DNA from: an uncultured bacterium
Lineage (GTDB): Bacteria; Margulisbacteria; WOR-1; CAVSGV01
Direction: 5' to 3'
Length of the DNA stretch: 32,000 nt
Assembly: GCA_963699255.1 (NCBI GenBank)
Contig: OY969425.1
Coordinates: 690,001 to 722,000, forward strand
A program made the position numbers and the translations under genes. The notes beneath the pieces were generated by a model that saw nothing but the letters and a program-made list of their open reading frames with translations, was not told the origin of the DNA and made no database searches. Below, piece by piece: positions 4,367 to 27,211 of the stretch (its first letter is position 1; every line of letters starts with the position of its first letter).

Positions 4367-5802
4367 ACAGACACCTTCCCTTCGGTAACTATCTTGATCG
4401 AATGATAGATTATATCAAGCATTCCGCTTAAATCCACGTTCGAAATGCAGAACGGAGGCATAATAACGATAATGTCCGAGAGAGGCCGTATTATCAGACC
4501 GCGCTTCCTCGCTTCCATTATCACATTGATGCCGATCTTTTCGGACACTCGGTATTCTTTCTTAGTTCTCTTATCCTTTACAAGCTCTATTCCCGCAAGG
4601 AAGCCGCACTGGCGCACGTCTCCTACATGATTAAGCTTGCGGAATCCCCTGAGCTTTTCGGCCAGCAATCTTATCTTTGGCTGCAACTTTTGCAGCGTTC
4701 TCTCTTTACTGAAAACATCTATCGACGCTATTGCCGCGGCGCACCCGAGGGGATTCCCGGTGTAGGTGTGTCCGTGATAAAAAGTCCTGTGGCTCTCCTG
4801 CGTGCCAAGGAAAGCCTTGAATATTTTTTCCGTTGTCAGGGTCGCGGCAACAGGAAGATACCCACCGGTCAGGCCCTTAGCGACGATCATTAGATCGGGC
4901 TTCACGCCTTCGTGCTCACAGGCGAACATTTTGCCGGTCCTTCCAAATCCCATCGCAACTTCATCGACTATCATCAGAATATTGTATTTCGTGCAAAGTT
5001 TTCTTATCCCCTTAAGATACCCTTTCGGATACACAAGAATTCCCGCCGCCGCCTGGACAAGCGGCTCCACTATCATCGCGGCGATCTCCTTGTGATGAGC
5101 TTTCATTATCGTTTCAACCGCTTTCAAACACTTCATCTCGCACTTCGCATCCCTGCCCGCCGAAGCCTTGGCGTAGGCGGGTCGCATCTCACATCTGTAG
5201 CAATACGGTGTCGGCGCCTTGAACGATCTGAAAAGCAGCGGTTTATACATCTTATGGAACAGGTCGATCCCCCCGACCGAAACGGACCCGATGGTGTCCC
5301 CATGATATGCGTTAACCAGAGTTAAGAACTTTGTCTTGAATTTGGGATTTTGAAATTGTTTAGGATTTCGGATTTCGGATTTCGGATTTTTTCTCTGCTG
5401 CCAATATTGGAACGCCATCTTTAACGCTATCTCGACGCCTTCCGATCCCGAATCAGAATAAAAAACCCTGGTCAACCCTTTCGGCGCAAGTTCGATGATC
5501 TTTTCGGCAAGCAAGGTTGCCGGAACATTCGATAATCCGAGCATCGTCGAATGCGCGATCTTGTCGATCTGTTTTTTTACCGCCCTGTCGATGGCCGGAT
5601 GCCTGTGGCCGTGAACATTCACCCAGAGGGAAGAAACGCCGTCGATGTACCATTTGCCGTCAATGTCCTTGATCCACGCGCCCCGGCCTTCCTCAATGAT
5701 AAGCGGCTCTTCTTTCATCCAATCCCGCATCTGAGTGAAAGGATGCCAGATATACTTATGATCAATATCTTTCAATATATTTTGTTTCATGGTTGTCTCC
5801 AA
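4363..5802 (-). CDS. bioA: Adenosylmethionine-8-amino-7-oxononanoate aminotransferase
   Basis: Class-III aminotransferase motifs (YHGDT, DEVAMGFGRTGK, HGHTYTGNP) and biotin operon context. Carries a heptamer-encoded loop insertion (NPKSEIRNPKQFQNPK). Confidence 0.9.
   Translation of the reverse strand: METTMKQNILKDIDHKYIWHPFTQMRDWMKEEPLIIEEGRGAWIKDIDGKWYIDGVSSLWVNVHGHRHPAIDRAVKKQIDKIAHSTMLGLSNVPATLLAEKIIELAPKGLTRVFYSDSGSEGVEIALKMAFQYWQQRKNPKSEIRNPKQFQNPKFKTKFLTLVNAYHGDTIGSVSVGGIDLFHKMYKPLLFRSFKAPTPYCYRCEMRPAYAKASAGRDAKCEMKCLKAVETIMKAHHKEIAAMIVEPLVQAAAGILVYPKGYLKGIRKLCTKYNILMIVDEVAMGFGRTGKMFACEHEGVKPDLMIVAKGLTGGYLPVAATLTTEKIFKAFLGTQESHRTFYHGHTYTGNPLGCAAAIASIDVFSKERTLQKLQPKIRLLAEKLRGFRKLNHVGDVRQCGFLAGIELVKDKRTKKEYRVSEKIGINVIMEARKRGLIIRPLSDIIVIMPPFCISNVDLSGMLDIIYHSIKIVTEGKVSV
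5363..5390. repeat. Tandem heptamer block GGATTTC x3 + GGATTTT (decayed units extend back to ~5336), in-frame inside bioA
   Basis: Direct reading: ggatttc ggatttc ggatttc ggatttt. On the coding strand it encodes NPKSEIRNPK. Confidence 0.9.
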
Positions 5803-8833: not shown

Positions 8834-9649
8834 ATGAAAAAACACCTGGTGATGCTCCACGGCTTCGGCTGTGACTCAAGGGTATTCTCATCGATCGGAA
8901 CGAAACTGTCAAAAGACCATGACGTCCTTATGGTGGACCTGCCCGGCCACGGCCAGACCAAGGAAAAGTTCGGCGATTTTTCTTTCTCCGCTTACACGAT
9001 ACTTCACGCGCTCGACCAATATCTGGGCGAGCCTTACTCTCTTCTCGGCTGGTCGATGGGAGGACAGATCGCGCTAGAAATGTACAAGCAAACAAAGAAG
9101 AGATGGGAGATGAGAGATGCGAGATGCGAAAAGCAAGAGTCTAAATGCAAATGCGGGCACGATCACGAACATGAACATGCGCACAGCGATATCACATCGC
9201 TCATCCTCGTTTCATCCACGCCAAAGTTCGTGGCTTCAGACGATTTCCCATTCGGAATGAACAAGGCCGTTTTCAGCAAGTTCAGAAAGGGTCTAAAAGA
9301 TCACCCTGAAAAGACAATGAACGATTTTTACAACCTTGTATTCTCTGACAACGAGGATGCGTCCTTGTTTCTATCCAGCATCCAAACCCAAACCCCATCC
9401 CAACAGACCCTTCTAGAATGCTTGAAAAGTTTCGAGCGCTTCGACGGAAGGAACATTCTTCCCGCGGTGAACGTCCCCACCCTGATAATGGCCGGCGACG
9501 GCGATGAGGTGATCGACCCGAAGGCGTCGCTTTATCTGTCGCAGGAAATAAAGAGCAGCTCATTGAAGATGTTCAGGGGCGCCGGACACGCGCCGCATCT
9601 TACAAGAGAAAAGGAAATGATCGATGAGATCTCAAAGTTCCTTGGATAA
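8834..9649 (+). CDS. Alpha/beta hydrolase, BioH-like pimeloyl-ACP methyl ester esterase, with a ~30-aa low-complexity insertion
   Basis: LHGFG oxyanion region and GWSMGG nucleophile elbow. C-terminal GAGHAPH. Sits between bioB and bioC. Insertion is KKRWEMRDARCEKQESKCKCGHDHEHEHAHSD. Confidence 0.65.
   Translation: MKKHLVMLHGFGCDSRVFSSIGTKLSKDHDVLMVDLPGHGQTKEKFGDFSFSAYTILHALDQYLGEPYSLLGWSMGGQIALEMYKQTKKRWEMRDARCEKQESKCKCGHDHEHEHAHSDITSLILVSSTPKFVASDDFPFGMNKAVFSKFRKGLKDHPEKTMNDFYNLVFSDNEDASLFLSSIQTQTPSQQTLLECLKSFERFDGRNILPAVNVPTLIMAGDGDEVIDPKASLYLSQEIKSSSLKMFRGAGHAPHLTREKEMIDEISKFLG
9100..9127. repeat. GAGATGN heptamer block x4, in-frame inside the bioH-like gene
   Basis: gagatgg gagatga gagatgc gagatgc, followed by decayed units gaaaagc aagagtc taaatgc aaatgcg. 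Confidence 0.9.
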
Positions 9650-15145: not shown

Positions 15146-15973
15146 ATGCTTAAATCCCAAGATGGCGTTATTTTTTACCGGGAATGGAACTGCCCTTCTC
15201 CCAAGACGGTCGTCATACTTGTCCACGGGCTTGGCGGGTACTCGGGAAGATTCTTCGAGTTCGGCCCTTACCTGGCAAAGCACGGCATGCAGGTCTATGC
15301 AATAGAGCTTAAAGGCTTCGGCGAATCCCCTTCCGTAAAAGGCCACATCGATAACTTCCAGACCTATACGAACGAACTGAAGTCCCTCGTTGTAACGGCG
15401 AAAAAACTGCATGCGGAAAAAAAGATATTCATGTTCGGCGAATCGATGGGCGGGCTCATCACGCTTGATTTCTTGATCCATCACCAGAACATGATCGACG
15501 GGGCGATCCTGATGTCCCCCGCCGTAAAAGACAAGCTGCCGATGCCCTTTGCGAAAAAACTGGAGATCTTCAGATCCGCGATGTTCGATCCGATGGCGTT
15601 CTTCCCTGCCGGCTTCTCGGCGGAGTTGTTCACGCGCGACAAAGTGATGGCAAAAAGGATAAACAACGACCCTCTCGAGGTGAGGCAGTTCACGGCAAAG
15701 TTCTTTTTCTCGATATTGAAAGCGATGATATTCGTGAGCATGAAGCCCCGCGCGATCAATCTTCCCGTCCTCATGCTGCTTGCGGGGCATGACTCGATGA
15801 TCTCTGCTGAAACCGCGGAGAGGTATTTCAAGAAAATGCCATCGAAGGACAAAGAACTGAAATGGTATCCGGAAATGTTCCACGCGCTTTATGTTGATAA
15901 GGATAGAGAGCCTGTTTTCAAGGATATTGTTGATTGGATAAATAAAAGAGCAGAGATGGGAGATGTGAGATGA
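15146..15973 (+). CDS. Alpha/beta hydrolase, lysophospholipase/monoacylglycerol lipase-like
   Basis: [16 protein letters not shown] nucleophile elbow, C-terminal FHAL. Overlaps the glpK start (ATGA). Confidence 0.8.
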
Positions 15974-15980
15974 GAGGTGT
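15953..15980. repeat. GAGATGN heptamer block x4 spanning the lipase stop and the glpK start
   Basis: gagatgg gagatgt gagatga gaggtgt. Contains the lipase TGA (15971-15973) and the glpK ATG (15970-15972). Confidence 0.9.
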
Positions 15981-17469: not shown

Positions 17470-17487
17470 GAGCTTAGATGTTTAATT

Positions 17488-17522
17488 TCTAATCTCCAAT
17501 CTCTATTCTCTAATCTCTACAA
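17488..17522. repeat. TCTAATC heptamer block x5 between convergent glpK and DUF167
   Basis: tctaatc tccaatc tctattc tctaatc tctacaa. The minus strand encodes EIRE plus the TAG stop of DUF167. Confidence 0.85.
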
Positions 17523-25063: not shown

Positions 25064-25749
25064 TGCTGAAATACCAGGGTGTTTTCAATAAGACGGACAA
25101 GGCCGGGAATAAGGAGATAAATTTCCAGCTGATGATCCCCGGCAACAGGATAACGGAGATTGACGGCGCATCGACGATGGAAAAATACGGGTTCGAGCTG
25201 GTCGTCAACCAGGCGTATCATCCCGAGCTCTGGACCAATCAGGAATCTGCGGTCGGAGTGACCATTGAAACGAACATCATTTACAAGCATCACCCACTCA
25301 AAATAGGGATGACGGGGGACACCCGGTACGAAACTTTCATCGGGAACCAGTACCAGGACATCCAGATGCTCCTGATAAACATCGGCTCGATAGAAAAAGA
25401 GGAAGGGAAACTTCTCCACTCCCACCTCGGGCTCTGCGGAAGCATAAACCTGCTCAAGGAAGCGCGGCTCGGCAAACCTCTTCTCGCCGTCCTTACCGAG
25501 TTCGGGGAGGAATTCAGGGGCAGGAGAAAGACCATAAGCAAGATCATCGAGCTGTGGGCCCAGCCGATGGAGCCGTCCCTCATAAACCACGACTTTCGCG
25601 TTATCCCGGCCGACCTTAACCTTGAGATAGATCTGACGGACCTGAGCATAAAAGAGACAAAGACAGGCAAGTTCCATCCCTACCCAGAGATCGATTTTGA
25701 CGAACTTGATCTCGAACTCATAAGCTACAAGCATAAGCACAGCGCATGA
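25060..25749 (+). CDS. Second half of the MBL-fold hydrolase (split gene, part 2)
   Basis: Contains the remaining MBL motifs (AYHP, MTGDTRY, HSHLG). The reading frame is open upstream, so a -1 change at ~25050-25060 fuses it to part 1 (DIFGSPGVMLKYQGVF). Confidence 0.7.
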   Translation: MMLKYQGVFNKTDKAGNKEINFQLMIPGNRITEIDGASTMEKYGFELVVNQAYHPELWTNQESAVGVTIETNIIYKHHPLKIGMTGDTRYETFIGNQYQDIQMLLINIGSIEKEEGKLLHSHLGLCGSINLLKEARLGKPLLAVLTEFGEEFRGRRKTISKIIELWAQPMEPSLINHDFRVIPADLNLEIDLTDLSIKETKTGKFHPYPEIDFDELDLELISYKHKHSA

Positions 25750-26183
25750 AATTCATAGTTGATTCCATGCTCGGAAAACTCGCAAAAAGGCTGCGCCTCA
25801 TGGGATATGACACTTATTATGATGCTAAGAAAGACGACCGCGAGATACTAAAGCTTTCAAAGGAAGAGGATCGTTTAATAGTGACCAGGGACACGGGGAT
25901 GTCAAAGATACGCGGCGCAAAAGTCCTCCTGATAAGATCAACGGACATCCATGAACAGCTGAAGGAAATATCAAAGCTAAGTCTGGACAGCAACCGATCA
26001 TTTTCAAGATGCCCGGAATGCAATACTCCCGTAAAGGACGTCAGCAAAGAAGAGGTCAAGAATATCGTTCCGAAATTGGTATATGAAACGCTGAACAAGT
26101 TCTCTTATTGCCCGAAATGCAAAAAAGCCTACTGGCAGGGAACTCACTACCAAAAGCTTCTCAAAGAATTAAAAAGCATATAA
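25746..26183 (+). CDS. Mut7-C (PIN-like) RNase domain protein with C-terminal zinc ribbon
   Basis: MKFIVDSMLGKLAKRLRLMGYDT is the typical Mut7-C N-terminus. CPECN...CPKCKK zinc ribbon. ATGA overlap with the MBL gene. Confidence 0.8.
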   Translation: MKFIVDSMLGKLAKRLRLMGYDTYYDAKKDDREILKLSKEEDRLIVTRDTGMSKIRGAKVLLIRSTDIHEQLKEISKLSLDSNRSFSRCPECNTPVKDVSKEEVKNIVPKLVYETLNKFSYCPKCKKAYWQGTHYQKLLKELKSI

Positions 26184-26296
26184 GTTAGCCAGAATATTCC
26201 CCCTTGCTGTCGAAAGCGACTATAAGTGACAATTCCCCCTACAGTTTTATGCTACTTTCATGCTCAACGCATCTGGCAACAAAATTGCTAACTCAA

Positions 26297-26372
26297 GAGA
26301 TGCGAGGTGTGAGATGCGAGATGCGATAAAAACAAAAGAGATGGGATGTGCGAGATGAGAGATGCGATAAGA
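26297..26372 (+). repeat. Two adjacent GAGATGN x4 blocks upstream of, and overlapping the start of, the four-helix-bundle gene
   Basis: 26297-26324 reads gagatgc gaggtgt gagatgc gagatgc (then gataaaa). 26338-26365 reads gagatgg gatgtgc gagatga gagatgc (then gataaga). Confidence 0.9.
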
Positions 26373-26744
26373 CATTTTACCGATTTGATCGTGTGGCAAA
26401 AAGGTAATGAATTAGCCATTTTGGTATATTCCTTAACCAGCAAATTCCCCAAAAATGAACTTTTTGGACTTACAAATCAGCTCAGGAGAGCTGCCACTTC
26501 AATCCCGGCAAACATCGCCGAAGGAATGGGAAGAGGAAGTTATCCTGATAGAGCAAGATTTTATTACAATGCCAGAGGCTCGATATATGAAGTTGAAAGC
26601 TACCTCATTGTCTCTAAAGAACTGAAGCATCTTGATGTTGATAAGTTTACAAAAGCAATGGATTTATTGAACTCAACAAGAATGCTATTGAATGCTTTTA
26701 TAGCAAAGACCTTGAAAATAGGAAATGAGAGAGTATTAACCTGA
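26355..26744 (+). CDS. Four-helix-bundle protein (23S rRNA intervening-sequence protein family, TIGR02436/PF05635-like)
   Basis: DLIVWQKGNELAILVYSLTSKFPKNELFGLTNQLRRAATSIPANIAEGMGRGS...ARGSIYEVESYL matches the family pattern. Start is ATG 26355 or 26346; both lie inside a heptamer array. Confidence 0.85.
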   Translation: MRDAIRHFTDLIVWQKGNELAILVYSLTSKFPKNELFGLTNQLRRAATSIPANIAEGMGRGSYPDRARFYYNARGSIYEVESYLIVSKELKHLDVDKFTKAMDLLNSTRMLLNAFIAKTLKIGNERVLT

Positions 26745-26762
26745 GATGTATTTTCTCATCTC
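26743..26762 (+). other. Hairpin formed by a forward GAGATG unit and the first inverted CATCTC unit
   Basis: gagatg (26743-26748), 8-nt loop, catctc (26757-26762). It begins inside the TGA stop of the four-helix-bundle gene. Confidence 0.5.
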
Positions 26763-26783
26763 TGATCTCACATCTCTCATCTC
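26756..26783 (-). repeat. Inverted GAGATGN x4 block just downstream of the four-helix-bundle gene
   Basis: Plus strand reads tcatctc tgatctc acatctc tcatctc. The reverse complement is gagatga gagatgt gagatca gagatga, with the same A-rich and GAAAATA flanks. Confidence 0.9.
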
Positions 26784-26809
26784 ATTTTATTAAAAGGAGG
26801 TGATAACCA

Positions 26810-27211
26810 ATGATGTCTTTGAACAGGACCATCCTCGTCGGCCGCCTGGCCGCCGATCCTGAAGTCCGCTACACCACGAACGAGATACCTGTCGCAAGGT
26901 TCGCCCTCGCGGTCGGAAGGCCGTCAAAAAACGGCAAAAATGAAGTTGATTTTATCAATATAGTCGCCTGGAGGGGGCTCGCGAAGATCTGCGGCGAATA
27001 CCTGAAAAAAGGTAAACCAATAGCTATTGAAGGGAAACTTCAGATAAGGAAATACGAAAAAGACGGGCAGAAACGGTCTTTTACCGAAGTCGTGGCAAGC
27101 AATATGCAGATGCTCGATACGAAGTTTTTTAAGGAATCGGACAGCGGCGAAACCAAAGAAGAAGAGGAAGAGCTGGAGATCGAAGAAAAACCCGCGAAAA
27201 GCAAGAAATAA
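26810..27211 (+). CDS. ssb: Single-stranded DNA-binding protein (short, atypical C-terminus)
   Basis: OB-fold N-terminus NRTILVGRLAADPEVRYT..IPVARFALAV. Strong SD AAGGAGGTGA. The tail is acidic but ends KPAKSKK rather than D-D-(I/L)-P-F. Confidence 0.88.
   Translation: MMSLNRTILVGRLAADPEVRYTTNEIPVARFALAVGRPSKNGKNEVDFINIVAWRGLAKICGEYLKKGKPIAIEGKLQIRKYEKDGQKRSFTEVVASNMQMLDTKFFKESDSGETKEEEEELEIEEKPAKSKK

Follow-up and report, generated by a model that had tools for sequence, protein, structure and literature searches.

The DNA considered here, hereafter the window, is a stretch of 32,000 nucleotides from the genome of an uncultured bacterium (Margulisbacteria; WOR-1; CAVSGV01; GenBank assembly GCA_963699255.1, contig OY969425.1, forward-strand positions 690,001 to 722,000). 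Between a gene for a Mut7-C RNase domain and ssb, it carries a cassette of about 500 nt (26290..26790, plus strand) in which a gene for a four-helix-bundle protein of the S23p/23S_rRNA_IVP family, the protein family of 23S rRNA intervening sequences (IVS), is bracketed by inverted arrays of the heptamer GAGATGN. The original prediction, made from the letters of the window, described the forward arrays, the inverted array and the bracketed gene, and a direct check of the sequence found all of these features in place. GAGATGNGAGATG with at most one mismatch occurs 14 times in the window versus 0.2 occurrences expected, a count reached in 0/100 shuffles, and Tandem Repeats Finder recovers the same arrays. 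The cassette also proved more AT-rich than its surroundings, as had been judged by eye, with 36% G+C in its interior compared to 45-52% in the flanks and 47.5% in the genome.

Read from left to right, the interval begins with the Mut7-C gene (25746..26183, plus strand; PF01927, E 9.5e-46), which lies upstream of and outside the cassette, followed by a sigma-54-type -24/-12-like motif, TGGCAACAAAATTGCT (26274..26289, plus), directly after which falls the left edge of the insertion. The outer forward arm, F1 (26297..26326, plus), consists of four GAGATGN units (GAGATGC, GAGGTGT, GAGATGC and GAGATGC, 26297-26324) plus GA, with a Shine-Dalgarno-like GAGGTG in the second unit. The inner forward arm, F2 (26338..26367, plus), again has four units (GAGATGG, GATGTGC, GAGATGA and GAGATGC, 26338-26365) and holds the start codon of the four-helix-bundle gene, likely the ATG at 26355 with an alternative at 26346; orthologous genes begin at the ATG of the third unit (MRDAIK...). 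F1 with its tail is a 41-nt duplicate of F2 with its tail (30/41 identical), orthologues having a single forward array, and the duplication has produced a short upstream open reading frame (ORF) of 14 codons, MRDAIKTKEMGCAR (26314..26358, plus), whose TGA overlaps the main ATG (ATGA). The gene itself (26355..26744, plus) encodes 129 amino acids and ends in a stop at 26742-26744. A lone forward unit, GAGATG (26743..26748, plus), overlaps this TGA and faces CATCTC at 26757-26762; the unit at the stop codon has counterparts in two orthologous loci of relatives (GGGATG in L009, GAGATG in G001). The inverted arm (26757..26784, minus) comprises four CATCTCN units (CATCTCT, GATCTCA, CATCTCT and CATCTCA), which read as GAGATGN in the opposite direction. 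Ten bases past this array begins the ssb ribosome-binding site, AAGGAGGTGA (26794..26803, plus), and then ssb itself (26810..27211, plus; PF00436, E 2e-31), the host gene whose leader contains the cassette and with which the cassette is co-oriented. No terminator-like site was found between the cassette and ssb. The genome encodes rpoN, and TGGCAACAAAATTGCT is a putative host promoter of ssb.

The same site is filled, empty or replaced in related genomes, which are cited below by handle where they must be told apart (the genome of the window being G000). Three independent assemblies (L009-L011; ENA, JGI, Logan) encode, between Mut7-C and ssb, a protein 81% identical to that of the cassette, and G001 (L012) encodes one of 70-74% identity (range across aligners) before ssb. 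In all of these, one forward GAGATGN x4 array holds the start codon and one inverted array precedes the ssb ribosome-binding site. The site is empty in G005, G004, G002 and G039, where TGGC-N7-TTGCT is followed by 14-20 nt and then by the ssb ribosome-binding site; the cassette thus stands in place of this short spacer. Mut7-C adjoins ssb without a cassette in G005, G004 and G039. At the junction, TTGCT, TGTATCCCTTCAGT and TAAAGGAGG succeed one another in G005, compared to TTGCT, the cassette (26290...26790) and TAAAAGGAGG in G000. The proposed insertion between the Mut7-C gene and ssb is supported by a presence/absence polymorphism at exactly that junction, with empty sites in some relatives and arms retained by the orthologues at the locus in others. 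In G003, this interval is occupied by another PF05635 gene (E 1.6e-19), whose arms are also of another kind, AACNTCC-type facing GGATGTT-type. This second cassette is called B, and that of the window A. The sigma-54-type motif is kept throughout, before ssb in empty sites (G005, G004, G002) and before the cassette in filled ones (L009, G001, G003).

Cassette A has also been encountered away from ssb. G006 (GCA_042577445.1) carries a 67%-identical copy at a different locus, before a UPF0102/NERD gene, with the same arms; the DNA of this copy is 100% identical to GCA_042577445.1 over 3360 nt, and it too is preceded by a sigma-54-type motif (L014, about 2445-2461). A tree of three linked genes places the filled G001 outside a poorly resolved crown (support 18-49%) that mixes filled (G000, L009), empty (G005, G002) and replaced (G003) sites. 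One gain, then loss and replacement, would be the most parsimonious history, weakly supported by this tree and not established. Judged from these comparisons, gene and arms behave as one heritable module that appears to have been gained, lost and exchanged within a spacer of ~15 nt before an essential gene. Variation at the junction is not limited to the cassette: in G003 (L015) and G002 (L019), there is no Mut7-C gene between the upstream gene, of 229 aa, and the ssb promoter motif.

In RNA, the arms are predicted to close a long stem around the whole ORF, as the original prediction had proposed. The fold of 26285-26795 has a minimum free energy of -137.6 kcal/mol compared to -112.9 +/- 5.4 kcal/mol for shuffled sequences (z -4.56), and 0/100 shuffles were as stable. 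F1 provides the predicted 5' half of the closing stem and the inverted array its 3' half, with about 26 pairs over 28 nt. As isolated duplexes, the two forward arms differ little in their energy with the inverted arm (-41.6 kcal/mol for F1, -39.1 kcal/mol for F2); in the ensemble of the whole cassette, the inverted arm makes ~19 pairs with F1 and ~0 with F2. The lone unit at 26743-26748, described in the original prediction as pairing locally with 26757-26762, is able to do so, but in the predicted ensemble of the whole cassette it hardly ever pairs with the inverted arm. The stem of the L009 orthologue is likewise significant (z -3.85).

The arrangement recurs across the 1.77-Mb, single-contig genome. 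It encodes ten PF05635 paralogues, none of them within rRNA, and its only 23S gene (genome 1759891-1762832) is uninterrupted, measuring 2942 nt against a model of 2925 positions. By eye, 8/10 paralogues are preceded by a forward heptamer array and followed by its reverse complement, with one unit per paralogue: GCTNACN, ACAATNN, ACAGTNN, GGCNANN, GAGATGN, GGAANNN, ACAAATN and AAGTTAG. When upstream/downstream complementarity was scored for 1517 gene-like ORFs (nine paralogues and 1508 controls), a score of at least 25 was reached by 7/9 paralogues compared to 16/1508 control genes (about 1%). The expectation that paralogues would also be flanked by inverted GAGATGN arrays was hence correct as to the inverted arms and wrong as to the heptamer, each bracketed paralogue having its own. 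Between four-helix-bundle paralogues and dispersed array families, a one-to-one mapping is unsupported, as only GAGATGN and ACAAATN are many-copied. In four of the ten cassettes (window 26274-26289; genome 182411, 677368 and 1426287), the first heptamer follows 7-9 nt after a sigma-54-type motif (TGGCA-N6-ATTGCT), of which the genome has only about 20 convincing intergenic copies.

Such cassettes are also widespread among other phyla. One scan of genome contigs yielded 80 PF05635 loci, 76 of them usable, from Bacteroidota, Acidobacteriota, Patescibacteria, Planctomycetota, Chloroflexota, Cyanobacteria, Proteobacteria, Verrucomicrobiota and others, including one archaeon; identically laid-out windows, displaced by 650 nt, served as controls. 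The median arm score was 32.5 for the 76 loci compared to 17 for controls (Mann-Whitney p 1e-26), with 87% of loci above the control 95th percentile and scores of at least 30 in 58% of loci versus 0/140 controls. The best period of the 5' arm was 7 or 14 in 50/60 loci. Neighbouring genes are mostly co-directional with the cassette (downstream 56/66, upstream 62/69) and a median of 39 nt, roughly the length of one arm, separates its stop codon from the start of the following gene; the cassettes therefore appear to be wedged into transcription units. The sigma-54-like motif was upstream of 0/76 of these loci and is rejected as a defining feature of the cassette, being lineage-specific. This breadth bears on one alternative, that heptamer arrays made by slippage, resembling the STRR repeats of cyanobacteria, merely happen to flank the gene. 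The genome does contain 117-144 period-7 arrays of many unit types, some of them beside unrelated genes. Coincidence is nonetheless very improbable given the bracketing of paralogues against that of control genes, the cross-phylum arm scores, the retention of the same arms by orthologues and by the copy at another locus, and an array length that, unlike one produced by slippage, is tightly set at four units.

The protein matches PF05635 (E 8e-35, 119.7 bits against a cut-off of 33.8) and TIGR02436 (113.3 bits against a cut-off of 24), its sole family matches, and has no recognisable nuclease, recombinase or polymerase domain. Residues 6-92 match a solved structure, that of Xanthomonas XCC0516 (PDB 2GSC chain A; E 1.2e-18), a homologue that forms a toroidal homopentamer (PMC4990558). 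Comparison of G000 with its 81%-identical orthologue L009 gives a dN/dS of 0.07 at a dS of about 1.8, other pairs being saturated at synonymous sites; by this measure the protein is functional and under strong purifying selection. Since synonymous sites are near or at saturation, the conservation of arm sequence is not residual similarity. The protein was also considered as Avd, the accessory protein of diversity-generating retroelements, which belongs to the same four-helix-bundle superfamily as a distant member. This candidate was rejected: the match to NF033474 is weak (19.4 bits against an equivalog cut-off of 80), there are no template or variable repeats, and no reverse transcriptase (PF00078) was found across the genome, which is 95% complete. 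A role in anti-phage defence was likewise set aside, with no PADLOC match for the cassette protein or its three upstream neighbours. Nor is the unit a recognisable transposon or miniature inverted-repeat element, with no transposase in or beside it and no target-site duplication at the ssb site when empty and filled versions are compared.

On balance, we favour an IVS-type hairpin cassette embedded in the ssb mRNA leader and processed by RNase III, the stem of which would also gate translation of the cassette's own gene. The closest known counterpart is the 23S IVS of Coxiella burnetii (helix 45). Its terminal stem measures 28 bp, its S23p start is preceded by 3-4 tandem heptamers, and RNase III cuts the stem at the first repeat, removing the Shine-Dalgarno region (PMC4990558). 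ORF-bearing 23S IVS occur in Coxiella and Leptospira and are also reported for Brucella and Xanthomonas (PMC4990558). The element of the window resembles these in having an S23p/PF05635 protein encoded in the loop, a length of about 430-500 nt, complementary arms of ~28 nt, tandem heptamers upstream of and into the start of the ORF, and a Shine-Dalgarno/start region inside the stem. It was on such grounds (the IVS protein family, the heptamer arms and a stem more stable than shuffled sequences) that the proposal of an IVS-like cassette outside rRNA held. The element of the window differs in its location, in the ssb 5' leader rather than in 23S helix 25 or 45, and in its ORF, which is under purifying selection, compared to a Coxiella ORF reported to be decaying and probably untranslated. 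RNase III cleavage has been demonstrated in Coxiella, whereas here it is suggested by analogy, and the heptamer of the window, unlike that of the 23S IVS, forms about 40 gene-less copies in the genome. The reading is favoured because every structural feature of the 23S IVS except the rRNA location is present, an RNase III homologue (rnc) is encoded in the genome, there is no terminator and the cassette is co-oriented with ssb.

The proposed sequence of events would begin with transcription of the cassette as part of the ssb transcript, which is likely because the promoter-like motif and the ssb ribosome-binding site enclose the cassette, which is co-oriented with ssb and followed by no terminator. 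The arms would then pair in the RNA over about 26-28 bp, interrupted by single mismatches that fall mostly on the variable seventh position, and draw the two host flanks together. RNase III would cut this duplex, as has been demonstrated by experiment for the 23S IVS of Coxiella and Leptospira, detaching the cassette and leaving ssb expression intact, which would explain how such elements are tolerated inside operons and before essential genes. Stem formation may also gate translation of the four-helix-bundle gene, as would be expected because the forward arm supplies both the Shine-Dalgarno-like GAGGTG and the ATG of this gene. Following the 41-nt duplication in G000, the outer arm may close the stem and the inner arm leave the start region free.

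Several observations weigh against this RNA-processing account. The whole fold of the G003 cassette is not significantly better than shuffled sequences, with a z of only -1.34 (20 shuffles). Arms could not be detected around two of the ten paralogues (genome 1269865 and 1426345). A wobble test on 60 cross-phylum cassettes detected no bias toward pairing in the sense RNA, with 56 sense G:U mismatches compared to 73 antisense-only ones (p 0.16); the absence of wobble bias fits a constraint that is DNA-level or strand-neutral, and RNA-level selection is not claimed from sequence. Finally, there are dozens of gene-less GAGATGN arrays and fixed-length hairpins in the genome, some of them in-frame in genes, which the processing of one transcript cannot explain.

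These dispersed arrays share a common build. GAGATGN is the largest of the period-7 families (39-41 arrays), with exactly four units in 27/39 arrays, and its members consist of an A-rich leader, four units, GA and an A-rich tail, several of them forming short-loop hairpins. Core positions are 87-99% conserved and the seventh is almost random. A gene is present in a single copy of the family, and 16/39 arrays lie in sense orientation at -35 to +60 nt relative to a gene start. Two solo blocks of the family lie in the window. The block at 9100-9129 is a G000-specific in-frame insertion of 13 residues (in the TKKRWEMRDARCE region) in a BioH-like alpha/beta hydrolase (esterase), missing in all five family relatives. 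The block at 15953-15980 spans the stop of an upstream hydrolase gene and supplies an ATG upstream of the ancestral glpK start (GTG/ATG); in G001, G002 and G004, no array is present at the start of glpK. The suggestion that these blocks were footprints or target sites of the cassette did not hold, since no heptamers were found in the empty ssb sites of relatives and the blocks are additions specific to G000; comparison with relatives instead identifies them as lineage-specific insertions of the repeat module itself. In-frame insertion in protein-coding genes is also a property of the Rickettsia palindromic elements (RPE), which measure 100-150 bp. The block in the BioH-like gene resembles RPE in this respect and differs in being built of heptamers and in belonging to a family with a resident four-helix-bundle gene.

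Across relatives, the GAGATGN pattern has 98 hits in G000, 42 in G001 and 8 in G006, in which the A-type protein (that of cassette A) occurs, with 21, 14, 6 and 1 elsewhere in the family and 0 in most of the class. Among 41 relatives, it is confined to this family, its order and two strays (G011 with 7 hits, G037 with 1). Strict co-occurrence of the arrays with the A-type protein was rejected in the same set of relatives, the association being only partial: arrays also exist where the protein was not found, namely in G003, G002 and the 100%-complete G011.

Many gene-less copies of fixed length, together with the negative wobble test, keep alive a second explanation, namely that the cassette belongs to a DNA-level repeat family with a resident gene. 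The precedent is the REP/REPIN family with its RAYT gene, found in Pseudomonas and E. coli among others, in which the repeat is a palindrome of 20-35 nt and RAYT is a Y1 transposase of the IS200/IS605 type. By analogy, the hairpins would replicate or insert as DNA or single-stranded DNA, the protein would make, move or maintain the hairpin family, the gene-bearing cassette would be the master and gene-less copies non-autonomous, and the RNA stem would be incidental. As with REPIN/RAYT, a single gene lies between inverted copies of a short repeat, and many hairpins of that repeat, none with a gene, are scattered over gene junctions in the same genome. The size and uniformity of the GAGATGN family, its conserved core with a free seventh position, its many short-loop hairpins with one gene-bearing copy, the lineage-specific solo insertions (one in-frame in a conserved esterase) and the highest counts of pattern hits where the A-type protein is found are all consistent with this explanation, as are arm mismatches without sense-RNA wobble bias. 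It is a possible account, but distinctly less probable than the RNA-processing one. The resident gene encodes neither a Y1 transposase nor any known catalytic motif, its product has no recognisable nuclease, recombinase or polymerase domain, no reverse transcriptase was found in the genome, and no target-site duplication is visible at the ssb site. The repeats are heptamer arrays rather than single palindromes, and genes and repeat families do not match one-to-one: dispersed copies number 0-5 for most other cassette units, several abundant array families have no resident four-helix-bundle gene, and G003, G002 and G011 have arrays where the A-type protein was not found.

The arrays at gene starts raise a further alternative, in which the protein is a repeat-binding autoregulator similar to TRAP. 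A ring oligomer would bind the phased hexamers of its own leader and may also bind dispersed GAGAUG arrays on gene starts, controlling translation or RNA decay. The toroidal homopentamer formed by 2GSC, arrays of 4-5 phased units with a free seventh base, the sense-oriented arrays at gene starts (one of which supplies the glpK ATG region) and conservation of the hexamer across lineages with saturated synonymous sites all accord with such a role. We nevertheless regard it as improbable. Binding is purely hypothetical, and the conservation of the arms is explicable without a binder, as coding, Shine-Dalgarno and start-codon functions fix the forward arm and pairing fixes the other. Moreover, many arrays are antisense or within genes, and the cognate protein was not found in every genome that has arrays. 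A broader idea, doubtful at present, is that four-helix-bundle proteins are partners of dispersed heptamer repeats in general, their rings recognising the hexamers of their own arms and thereby propagating a selfish family or serving a genome-wide set of post-transcriptional operators on gene starts. If true, this would tie together rRNA IVS elements, the PF05635 family and STRR-type arrays.

Tandem heptamers, typically of 2-6 units, mostly intergenic, lineage-specific and often ending just short of start codons, are also represented by the STRR repeats of heterocystous cyanobacteria and, in marine Beggiatoaceae, by the TAACTGA repeats (PMC4679880). They are, however, mostly direct repeats with no associated gene family named, whereas the arrays described here form inverted pairs around a specific gene family. 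In the paper on the TAACTGA repeats, the words 'intervening', 'four helix' and 'S23' are all absent (PMC4679880). No description of free-standing PF05635 genes as heptamer-armed cassettes was found in the searchable literature, subscription journals being outside its scope; the searchable papers on dispersed heptamer repeats name no gene family, and heptamers in IVS were found only for Coxiella 23S. New at this locus are the series of empty, filled and replaced sites before ssb and the presence of the same cassette at two loci, along with the estimate of purifying selection, the negative wobble test and the rejection of the solo blocks as footprints or targets.

To our knowledge, 23S IVS have been known for more than 30 years with their origin and the role of their ORF unexplained, PF05635 is annotated in thousands of genomes with no known function, and the heptamer arrays of the STRR and TAACTGA types are likewise unexplained. 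The present comparisons indicate that rRNA IVS are only one landing place of a general module of gene and heptamer arms, one that normally resides in mRNA leaders and between co-directional genes. The ssb site represents a clean natural experiment in this respect, the same 15-nt spacer being empty, occupied by cassette A or occupied by the unrelated cassette B in sister genera, and it makes RNase III cutting of the stem, binding of the protein to the repeats and movement of the module directly testable.

Several further observations were made on the surroundings of these elements. The genome has two further ssb genes, a second copy (936919-937260) 84% identical to the one adjacent to the cassette and, at 1442722, a third that is more distant. 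A four-helix-bundle gene is the immediate downstream neighbour of an ssb paralogue in two other families of the class (L140 of G054, 952-1485; L151 of G047, 1857-2366); taken with the cassettes before ssb in this family, the association with ssb may be recurrent, or may be chance. High-scoring controls in the complementarity analysis include other bracketed cargo, both outside the window: a PDDEXK_3 (GxxExxY-type) gene between arms of ACGGAT units (genome 496627-497187) and an ORF6N gene between composite heptamer arrays (952117-952641). An apparent tRNA-gene stretch at about 1730104-1730439 is flanked on both sides by ACAAATG-type heptamer arrays, and its antisense was picked by the ORF caller as a false gene with a high arm score. 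Within the window, two other heptamer arrays, TTTCGGA x4.4 (5359-5389) and TAATCTC x5.3 (17483-17519), come from other dispersed families of the genome.

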